DNA of 64,000 bases from positions 213,428 through 277,427 of the forward strand of contig NW_019217787.1 in the NCBI RefSeq assembly GCF_002571385.2. The letters run 5' to 3'. The notes beneath the pieces are model-generated. The model saw nothing but the letters and a program-made list of their open reading frames with translations. It was not told where the DNA came from and searched no databases. The stretch is from Stylophora pistillata (taxonomy: Eukaryota). Of this stretch, positions 55,797-58,700 are shown in pieces (the stretch's first letter is position 1; every line of letters begins with the position of its first letter). Made by a program: the position numbers and the translations under genes.

Positions 55797-58700
55797 TCAC
55801 CTCGTAAATCGCTTGACTGGCTGAGGAGGTGCCATAAGAGCAAGGCCACTCCTCTGATTCGCTGCAGTCCCTTTACGATTAAAGCTTGTCTCAGATTTGT
55901 TTCGGCGAAAATTTTGCAAGTTCTTCTTTGTCTGCTGGGCGGAGGCGAAGGTGCCCGTGCTCGTTCCTGAAGTTGAGTTGGGCCTAATAACAACAAAGAC
56001 CGAAATGGAAAAATCATTTGATCAACTTTCTCAGTACAAGCAACTTTTCTTATCATGCATACTCTGACTGTGTCTTGTGCACGGTTAATATGACTTTTCC
56101 AAACCTAAGGTTGATAAGGCTTTTCCAAAATTGAGGTTAACAATTTCCTCTCATGTACCAAAATAATACCTTTAATTGTGGGACTACGCTGAGAACAGAC
56201 CACGTTCGAGATGTTTTAAGATGAAATAGTAAATCTGGAAACCTTGGGAAAAATTGTGATTAATAGAAAAACACGTCTGTTTGAAATGCTGTTCTTCGAG
56301 GTCCTACCGCGTAACTGTAAATATTTCTGGTGGGTAGGAAAATAATGCAATCTTATTTCTCCGTGTTCACACGTAAGCTTCGATTTGATTTACTCAAAAG
56401 GGTATACCTGGCTGTTGACAATAAAATGTTAGGAAAAAAAATCGATGAGTTAACCGAACTATTGTAACTTTGTTCGTTACCTTGCTGTCGAGCCAGCCGG
56501 CTTTCGTTTCCTCTTTCGACCAACAGGAGCCTTCTCATCCTGTTGCCAGTAATGTGAGCGGTTGCTGCTCCCATCATAATTGTCTCCTGTATCAGTCGCG
56601 CAATCTGAGCTGATGTAGTTGCTGTCTGACGTTTGATCCACTAATTCTTTCCGTTTAGATTTACTGACAGTCTTCTCCTTTTCTCTAACGGGTAAGGGAG
56701 GTAGCTGTTCGCCAAAAGAGAGATACATGTTCAAGAACAAACTTATTTGTCGTTATTTCTAATTTATCCCACTTTGCCAATTAAAATAATTTCCTAAACA
56801 GAACACATTATAGTAAGTTGCTAGGGAACCGAAAAGTAAAGTGACCTTGTAAGTGATTCAGTCTCCTCAATGTCTCCAAAATTGACTAAGAAAACTTGTT
56901 ACTTGGCGAGAAATCGTAAAATGCGTAGAAGCAATAAGTTAGCAATTTTACGATTTCGCTGTCAAAGGAGTGATAAACTTTGGTTCCTGAAAAGCTTGCG
57001 ACATTTTGTCTGTTAACGCTTTCCTCGTACTACGGAATCGGGAAGGTGTGTGTGTTTGTGTGCGCGCGCGTGTGTGTGTGTACATGTGTGTGTGCGTGCA
57101 TGTATGTGTGCGTGCATATGTGTGTGTGTGTGTGCGCGTGTGCGTGTGTAAACTTATCATGCAATTATAAATATCCTTCCAAAAACTGAAAACATTACCT
57201 TTACGCGACCCTGAAGGAAATCCATACCCTTGGGTCCTAACTTGACGTAGCTGATAACATTTTCGTGGTTACCAATCACTATATGTTCCGCTAGCACACG
57301 TTGTAAGACTAAAAGATGACCCAGTCTTTCTGCATCATTTCTATGATAGGATTTTCCAAGACCATACAGGGAACATCTATCGTGTCCTTCAGACGTCACA
57401 CGGGAACCACCTGAACCCTACAAGGTGACGAGCAAGTTTATTTTTGTTACAATGTGTGAAAATGGTTGTGGATTATTAGCCTGATGACGTGGATTCTTTT
57501 AACAAAAATTGGTAGAACTCTTTAATGACAGACGAATGCTTGACTTCACAAAGATGACGATATTTTAAGAAAGAAAAACTCTTAACTAATGTATGTCTTT
57601 GCAACATTCAGACCATCAGTTCCCCTATAGTTTGTGACGTACAAGAAATCAGAGAAATATACTGCAGACTGTGGCGCGGAGAGAGAGACAACAACATTTT
57701 GGAAGCCTCGCCAAGGAAAGTTGTACCCCTTATCTTAAGGTTGAGTAAAACCCCACCAGACTGCAATTTCCAACTTGCCTTAAATATGTCAATAAAATGG
57801 TTTAAAGTAAAGCTTTTAACAGGTTTCCTCCAGTTCCTTTTTCCACAATGGACAATGGAGTTAACATTTTCGACAAATGCCTTCGCATCAGACGTAATTT
57901 CCTTGTTATCAAATGTTGCAGAAGTAGCACAAGTGTCACACGTGCTGTCTGACCGAGCACGGCACTGGGACGGATCAAAACTCATTTCACCAAAGTAGTG
58001 TAGCAACTGAACTCTCCTACACTCGGACACGTTCTCACAGTACTGCACCACACGGAAAAGATTGTCCATGTCCACTTGTTTGCTGTCAGCTGTCCTGTCG
58101 CTGTTGTTCTGGATCATCCTAGGAGATCATGGAGAACAGTAAGAGTAAAAAGCAACCAACACTGTATTCAATACTATAGGTTGATACTCAAAACTGAACG
58201 GTATGTTAAGAGGACTGAACAAATCATTGTGTTGCGTGTTTTGTGCCCAGAAAACTCGCACCGTCTTCACAACCAATCAAATGCAAAACTACAGCCGGTT
58301 ACGACTTAGTCACGTGGGTTTTCCCGTTCTCTGCGCAGTTTGTGCATTTTTACGTGAATTTCTTATTGGTTCTTTGAGATATTTACCTCTGTTCGGATAG
58401 GCTATTGTAACTACTTCCGTCAAGAGCTGGTTTTGTGACACTCAACAAAATGCGCCCTAAAGACGATGCATTTGCTCACTGGACTCCAATGGTTGTCCAA
58501 ATCTAAAATACTACCTAACTACAAATGCGAATTTCAGGGGTAAGTAGGGGTATATGCTTGGAAAAAAGATGAATAGCACAAAAACAAGAGGTCTAATTTG
58601 GTCATTTTGCTTTCAAGTTTACAGTCTTTACACTCCTAGATAGAATGCAAGTTTCATTCTCACCAAATCATCTCTGTCATTAAAACGTTAACTGACTGTG

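Follow-up and report, generated by a model that had tools for sequence, protein, structure and literature searches.

The gene that crosses one end of a 64,000-nucleotide stretch of the Stylophora pistillata genome (positions 213,428 to 277,427 of contig NW_019217787.1, RefSeq assembly GCF_002571385.2; hereafter the window, with a G+C content of 37%) raises the question of whether a BLM helicase can persist in an animal lineage without the HRDC domain and, if so, what such an enzyme might still do. The role of this domain in dissolving double Holliday junctions has itself been called obscure, and a defect observed in vitro conflicts with the finding that interface mutants rescue cells (PMC4446433). 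Papers are cited here by PMC number, on the basis of excerpts of their text.

Structure and splicing of the gene

Ten exons in the window (63999-55797, reverse strand) together make up a single uninterrupted frame of 680 codons, with canonical splice sites except for one GC donor at 57778; the N-terminal exons are placed outside the window, on L005 and L006. The features within the window are as follows.

63745..63999 (-): exon, first part of RecA domain 1, carrying motif 0 and Walker A; begins about 10 bp past the window
63351..63538 (-): exon, RecA domain 1
62854..63036 (-): exon, DEAH box and motif III
60849..60980 (-): exon, start of RecA domain 2 with a shortened Lys/Pro loop
59625..59751 (-): exon, RecA domain 2
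58812..58996 (-): exon, helicase motifs V-VI
57779..58118 (-): exon, zinc-binding domain followed by the first part of the winged helix; a GC-AG intron comes next
57199..57417 (-): exon, remainder of the winged helix (RQC), ending past the beta-wing
56705..57198 (-): 494-bp GT-AG intron with a CA-rich repeat, removed in RNA
56481..56704 (-): linker exon, 224 nt; Lys-rich post-RQC linker joined directly to S-H-Y-W, predicted to be disordered
about 56640-56560 (-): inferred point of the HRDC deletion, within the linker exon
56557-56546 (-): S-H-Y-W motif in the linker exon
56518-56501 (-): basic run resembling a nuclear localization signal (NLS), in the linker exon
55797..55983 (-): last exon, disordered tail and stop codon
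55838-55806 (-): conserved L-M-A-P-P motif in the last exon
55520..55796 (-): 3' untranslated region; RNA contigs reach 55520-55522

A sequence-only reading of the window had placed both BLM landmarks that flank the expected HRDC domain on one exon, and the Lys-rich linker, S-H-Y-W and the basic run are indeed all encoded by the 224-nt exon, which a 497-bp intron separates from the last exon. The coordinates given in that reading proved exact, the winged-helix exon being located at 57417-57199, the linker exon, past the 494-bp intron, at 56704-56481 and the last exon at 55983-55797, and no assembly gap lies nearby, as it had stated: the span 50441..62124 is free of N, and the nearest gap is at least 4.8 kb from the BLM exons of the linker region.

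RNA was checked in four of the 24 listed runs (X1, X2, X22 and X23), with raw reads that amount to about 2% of each raw run. In X22 the joint 57199-56704 is carried by 8 reads with 5 starts, in X23 by 11 reads with 4 starts, and in X2 by one contig; it is missing from X1 because the contigs of that run break there. The joints 56480-55982 and 57778-57416 are present in all four runs, and the depth of the raw reads (about 2% of each run) is 0 to 1.5 in the 494-bp intron versus 12-15 on the following exon. Thus, the winged-helix exon is spliced straight to the short linker exon, and none of the RNA read in these runs shows an HRDC exon. Furthermore, the GC-AG intron 57418-57778 is borne out by RNA; contigs from two runs keep part of this intron and skip 57422-57610, possibly reflecting a deletion allele or a retained intron.

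Identity of the gene

The window protein scores 612 bits against BLM among the proteins in PDB, compared to 379 for RECQ1, 297 for RECQ5 and 232 for WRN, so that human BLM is the best match of solved structure, and its nearest named relatives are proteins of Acropora and Montipora. Together with the coral metagenome label of the runs in which the stretch is best represented, these relatives point to a stony coral. Pfam recognizes the DEAD (E 2e-25), Helicase_C (E 8e-18), RecQ_Zn_bind (E 6e-17) and RQC (E 3e-16) domains. When the DEAH exon was used as a query against the genome, four further RecQ genes were found on other contigs which, from recognized exon sequences, we take to be RECQL5 (C265), RECQL1 (C28), WRN (C319, with an HRDC exon) and RECQL4 (C1); only one match to the zinc/winged-helix exon occurs in the genome. 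In a RecQ tree of 33 rows and 183 columns, which includes three of these four paralogs and leaves out the RECQL4-like locus, the window gene groups with five other corals and Actinia in a single clade (99/95), placed among the BLM proteins, and the three paralogs split off at 99/95; the deeper nodes are weak, and the octocorals group with Trichoplax.

A grouping with RecQ1 or RecQ5, which the sequence-only reading had named as one outcome that would count against it, was thus contradicted by both score and tree: the gene is BLM, not RECQ1 or RECQ5. The two latter proteins are the naturally HRDC-less human RecQ helicases (PMC1616949) and resemble the coral protein in the possession of a RecQ core without HRDC, accompanied in RECQ1 by zinc and winged-helix domains. 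However, the coral protein has N- and C-terminal motifs of the BLM type, and separate RECQL1-like and RECQL5-like genes are located on C28 and C265.

Absence of the HRDC domain

Several approaches agree with the initial proposal of a BLM homolog apparently devoid of HRDC: Pfam, a BLM-specific profile and AlphaFold were all negative, and their controls positive. The Pfam HRDC model yields no match at E up to 10 in any of seven coral proteins. With a BLM-HRDC profile built from 74 orthologs, 111 of 123 proteins score at least 63 bits, 37 of these being outside the training set; the 12 below that level are nine coral and anemone proteins, all nine scoring below 0 or left unscored, and three models that end just past the winged helix (the models from Daphnia magna, Planococcus and Halyomorpha end 21-42 aa past the wing). 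The AlphaFold model is confident for the core and the winged helix, and residues 805-926 have pLDDT below 50 (bar residue 916) without a helix of four or more residues; in the control from Hydractinia, with a near-identical alignment, four HRDC helices are predicted at 938-1018 with pLDDT of about 90.

A six-frame search of the entire window with the BLM-HRDC profile gave a best score of 2.3 bits. We therefore rejected an HRDC exon hidden in the 494-bp intron, in the 497-bp intron or downstream, for which there is neither a profile match above noise nor a joint in RNA; this includes the 494-bp intron that had been described as lacking an HRDC-like frame, so that, judging from its sequence, a rare HRDC-coding isoform would find no such frame to use there. 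The profile tolerates interruption by introns, with two arthropod-like loci in which HRDC is split still scoring 31-55 bits, and it is specific to BLM, the WRN-like HRDC exon scoring just 3.8 bits.

Relocation of the BLM domain elsewhere in the genome was likewise rejected. A Pfam search of the genome gave three HRDC matches: one on a 1.1-kb contig, in a bacterial RNase D-like gene (a likely contaminant), an exon on C319 about 9 kb from a WRN-like helicase exon, and a sub-threshold match on C2766. A query with the Xenia HRDC, run without a positive control, found nothing in the genome, and the check for an HRDC-bearing BLM paralog, suggested along with the original observation, likewise found none. 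As a side observation, the small intronless contigs C4829 (L002) and C3984 (L024) carry bacterial-type RNase D-like and topoisomerase I-like genes and probably derive from associated bacteria.

Phyletic spread of the loss

The loss of HRDC is common to all sampled stony corals and one sea anemone. The spacer between the wing strand and S-x-Y-F/W is 56-69 aa long in eight coral and anemone proteins versus 131-180 aa in the 74 of 114 other proteins that have both landmarks. Seven coral clusters comprise 69 listed members, among them four Acropora and two Montipora species and many transcript-sized contigs; scored with the HRDC profile, none of the 69 exceeds 0 bits, and spacers measure 58-73 aa in the 33 members with both landmarks. 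Among 14 metagenome loci, five genomic coral contigs reach the linker exon, and all five have the same single short exon. The BLM of Actinia tenebrosa, represented by one gene model, shows the same HRDC gap. Xenia, Rhopilema, Hydra, Hydractinia, Clytia, Trichoplax and nearly all sampled bilaterians retain the domain; 111 of the 114 sampled proteins from outside corals and anemones have it, which implies strong selection for HRDC elsewhere.

Anemone sampling consists of this one species. The homolog listings include no named Nematostella, Exaiptasia, corallimorph, zoanthid, black coral or tube anemone; a wider hexacoral search added no anemones, and the metagenome scan returned just coral-like and arthropod-like loci.

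Several candidates for HRDC loss outside this group were rejected: in Elysia, Biomphalaria and Candidula the domain is present and only a precomputed label is missing, and the Daphnia magna model ends early, with full Daphnia isoforms scoring 97 bits. Among 134 further cluster representatives, 96 score at least 15 bits, and many of the remaining ones are truncated. Several carry a long tail without HRDC signal, the named cases being the mite Dermatophagoides pteronyssinus and the fungi Lipomyces, Dipodascopsis and Dissophora (P0163, P0215, P0217, P0234 and P0256). Less weight attaches to the fungal scores, as the animal profile gives only 9-30 bits to many HRDC-like segments that look fungal. 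These BLM/Sgs1-like proteins share with the coral form a core and a tail without an HRDC signal, and differ in belonging to distant lineages and in lacking the coral changes in motif 0 described below. Thus, by sequence, HRDC loss seems to recur outside corals and anemones, in a dust mite and some fungi.

Origin of the loss

The HRDC-less proteins form one clade (99/95) and have similar residual spacers, from which a single loss with one origin appears very likely, albeit resting on one anemone model. The simplest reading of the timing is that HRDC was lost after the octocoral split and before the split of stony corals and anemones; the deletion would then predate the latter. A genomic deletion would have joined the linker exon to the exon for S-x-Y-W and the nuclear signal, removing at least one intron. 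In the Xenia cluster, single-exon products break inside the last HRDC helix, which suggests that the deletion took an intron too.

Two other explanations of the pattern have to be weighed against a single genuine loss. The absence of HRDC could be an artefact, that is, an overlooked exon, an assembly error or a paralog mistaken for BLM, and it is true that the 5' part of the gene contains assembly gaps and a duplicated stretch, and that a divergent exon can escape a genome search. Yet RNA joints bear out the splicing, the same structure is seen in independent genomes and transcript contigs, and the four RecQ paralogs are located elsewhere in the genome. We consider this reading largely refuted already and scarcely credible, and regard the reality of the loss as practically certain. 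Alternatively, corals and anemones might have lost HRDC independently, as the recurrence of apparent losses in a mite and fungi and the sampling of one anemone species could suggest. The argument from recurrence is weakened by the lower reliability of the fungal scores, however, and the residual spacers of corals and Actinia are similar in both length and composition. The motif 0 changes are also common to the two groups, and independent loss seems very improbable.

Retained parts of the protein and partner genes

Apart from HRDC, which in human BLM occupies residues 1193-1290, the coral form resembles human BLM (PDB 4CGZ, 4CDG, 4O3M) in its recognizable parts. The SF2 RecQ core, the zinc-binding domain and the winged helix are all present, as indicated by Pfam and individual residues and, for the latter two, by a confidently predicted fold; no change is seen in Walker A or motifs V-VI among the seven coral and anemone proteins compared, and the DEAH box and the zinc domain are retained in coral BLM. 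The similarity extends to the N-terminal NNL-x-x-Q-L, an F-x-F motif like that which binds RMI1, and a dimer bundle, and, at the C-terminus, to S-x-Y-F/W, a basic nuclear-signal-like run and M-A-P-P. A further difference is the Lys/Pro loop, which touches dsDNA in human BLM and is two residues shorter in coral.

The NNL-x-x-Q-L and F-x-F-x-x-K-K motifs map to L006 4480-4191, with F-N-F-I-S-K-K about 40 residues after NNL-x-x-Q-L; an F-x-F-like motif about 40 aa past the NNL motif is found in five coral and anemone proteins and in the genome's own exon. A simple pattern search for F-x-F-x-x-K-K gave no match in the tested Acropora, octocoral and medusozoan models. In human BLM, F35-T36-F37 binds RMI1, and dissolution requires it (PMC8832983); the coral F-N-F-I-S-K-K resembles it and is a putative RMI1-binding motif. 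The N-terminal bundle is predicted by AlphaFold as three helices (pLDDT about 88) and in an iterative search matches the BDHCT-bearing region of vertebrate BLM with E 1e-12 to 2e-13 (1e-12 in round 3), whereas the Pfam BDHCT model itself gives no match on the coral protein. The disordered C-terminal tail keeps S-x-Y-W, M-A-P-P and the basic run, a putative nuclear signal at 56518-56501.

Exon-level matches locate genes for the partners of BLM in the same genome: RMI1 on contig C9 (E 4e-9) and TOP3A on C357 (E 2e-8). A search of the genome for RMI2 with Pfam PF16100, run without a positive control, did not find it. In addition to the TOP3A gene on C357, which has many introns, there is an intronless type IA topoisomerase gene on C232 (L023, about 1000-3564), presumably TOP3B by its appearance.

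Changes near the HRDC docking site

The HRDC domain of human BLM docks in the cleft formed by the RecA domains, beside the bound nucleotide, touching H666 and S729 (PMC4446433), and also contacts P956 (PMC7924943). We compared the core at 148 positions that are at least 95% conserved in HRDC-bearing BLM proteins, using seven coral and anemone proteins, with two partial cores dropped. Nine of the 148 positions are altered in at least six of the seven proteins, and four of these sites, G664, L665, F668 and D957 (numbered as in human BLM), are no more than two residues away from the contacts H666, S729 and P956. Changed sites account for four of eight positions near contacts versus five of 140 elsewhere (Fisher p = 4e-4, post hoc and with three contact residues). 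Eight HRDC-bearing control groups show no such changes at the 95% threshold; at 90%, one of them, the lancelets, also alters S729. In motif 0, L665I and F668L are found in all seven proteins and G664 is altered in six, as is D957 outside it, and R669 and Q672 are kept. Among 12 other HRDC-less candidates, L665I occurs in one and F668L in none. These sequence differences offer only a lead.

Functional implications

We propose that Stylophora and its relatives express an intact BLM that lost the approximately 80-residue HRDC domain through one old deletion and still serves as helicase in a BLM-TOP3A-RMI1 complex, its ATP use probably being less tightly coupled to unwinding; we assign this account as a whole a probability of roughly 0.65. 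Such an enzyme would dimerize via the helical bundle, bind RMI1 via the F-x-F motif and unwind DNA 3' to 5' in an ATP-driven manner. The last expectation follows from the behavior of human BLM devoid of HRDC, which unwinds in this direction with looser coupling, and HRDC is dispensable for core helicase activity (PMC4446433). A working, though less efficient, BLM-TOP3A-RMI1 complex is probable because the motif, the bundle, the catalytic motifs, the tail and the RMI1 and TOP3A genes all remain.

Whether junctions are still dissolved depends on how the human data are read. The sequence-only reading had stated that HRDC supports dissolution, and this stands insofar as human HRDC truncation and the K1270V substitution impair dissolution in vitro (cited in PMC4446433, PMC1616949 and PMC3351180). 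As a general statement it is qualified in two respects: the dissolution-defective construct spans residues 213-1267 and so also lacks the C-terminal tail (PMC3351180), and the HRDC-interface mutants K1270V, H666A and S729A rescue the sister-chromatid exchange phenotype in Bloom cells (PMC4446433). Moreover, the role of HRDC in D-loop binding is minor, BLM being oriented by the TOP3A-RMI1-RMI2 complex (PMC8813930). The engineered human proteins (642-1191, 'BLM-dH', and 213-1267) resemble coral BLM in having the helicase core and the winged helix but no intact HRDC; they are, however, truncations from which the C-terminal tail and some or all of the N-terminus are missing, in contrast to the coral internal deletion, which keeps both ends. 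Given the rescue by interface mutants, the orientation of BLM on D-loops by the partner complex itself, and the presence in coral of the tail that the defective construct lacks, coral BLM is probably still able to dissolve junctions together with TOP3A-RMI1, the orientation to which HRDC contributes in humans being provided by the partner complex.

The main rival to continued dissolution accepts the loss as real and holds that it cost most of the dissolution activity, the roles in resection, D-loops and forks being kept while the junctions are for the most part cut by nucleases and crossovers increase. The in vitro impairment of human BLM by HRDC truncation and K1270V, and the near universality of HRDC in other animal BLM proteins, speak for this view. 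Against it stand the rescue of Bloom cells by the same point mutants, the removal of the tail along with HRDC in the human truncation, and the retention of the dimer bundle, the RMI1-binding-like motif, RMI1 and TOP3A (though D-loop work uses these too), and we consider it unlikely. Slightly less probable still is the evolutionary form of this idea, namely that the common ancestor of corals and anemones gave up efficient double-Holliday-junction dissolution together with HRDC, junctions being cut instead; if so, more mitotic crossover and loss of heterozygosity would be tolerated, feeding mosaicism in long-lived colonies. A similarly slim chance attaches to the compensation of HRDC loss by a retuned ATP pocket, in which changes beside the cleft mimic the docked domain. 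The clustering of four changed sites by H666, S729 and P956 with none in the controls, and the stacking of the altered L665 on adenine, favor such retuning. Nevertheless, the statistic was devised after the columns had been inspected, neighboring sites are non-independent, and the contacts number just three; H666 is variable anyway (43/98) and S729 is kept; lancelets change S729 at the 90% threshold; the other 12 HRDC-less candidates do not repeat the motif 0 changes; and relaxed selection accounts for the pattern equally well.

Coral BLM is not a new kind of enzyme but BLM in an altered form, and HRDC-less gene models are already public. The loss itself appears to have gone unremarked: we found no report of it in corals or anemones in the literature searched, which mostly lay outside subscription journals and excluded supplements, and the excerpted text of PMC3351180, PMC12339026, PMC2680839 and PMC1616949 shows none. 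In the coral and anemone protein, an otherwise full-length BLM, the deletion is clean and internal and has persisted across a deep animal lineage; the protein is thus a natural construct that separates HRDC from the tail and comes with a short list of core changes. Being expressed and otherwise complete, it is likely to serve as a natural test of the role of HRDC and should interest RecQ specialists, since it makes the open question directly testable. Furthermore, the loss provides a shared derived marker for part of Hexacorallia and bears on the control of mitotic recombination in long-lived clonal animals, and the apparent losses in a mite and fungi suggest that HRDC is more dispensable than textbooks imply.

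Gene neighborhood and additional observations

Beyond the end of the window, BLM is arranged head to head with a gene for INTS3 (Pfam Ints3_N, E 1e-12), at L006 4480 (-) and about 4772 onward (+), respectively. The likely start codons are about 290 bp apart, which suggests a shared promoter. INTS3 also acts in DNA break repair, as part of the SOSS complex.

A BLM intron contains a retrotransposon-like element (L005, about 3200-6000) with matches to an integrase core and a zinc-binding domain, broken up over several frames and interrupted by a gap; the public gene model P0284 (1839 aa) takes pieces of this element as exons, probably wrongly. A stretch of about 2.1 kb with part of the Pro-rich exon is repeated (L005 about 6900-10000 and L006 1-700) and flanks the N gap 8059-8766, probably an assembly duplication. 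The N-terminal region encoded at L006 1-680 (-) contains an expanded array of Ser-Pro-Pro-Pro-containing repeats, which is long here and in the closest relatives P0294 and P0296 and short in other corals. The Acropora isoform models P0334, P0337 and P0340 have an alternative last exon right after the winged helix, without the nuclear-signal tail. Finally, exons of another gene lie at 46799-52052 (+) of the window; one of them gives a weak Mlf1IP match (E 0.001), and this gene may resemble HAX1.
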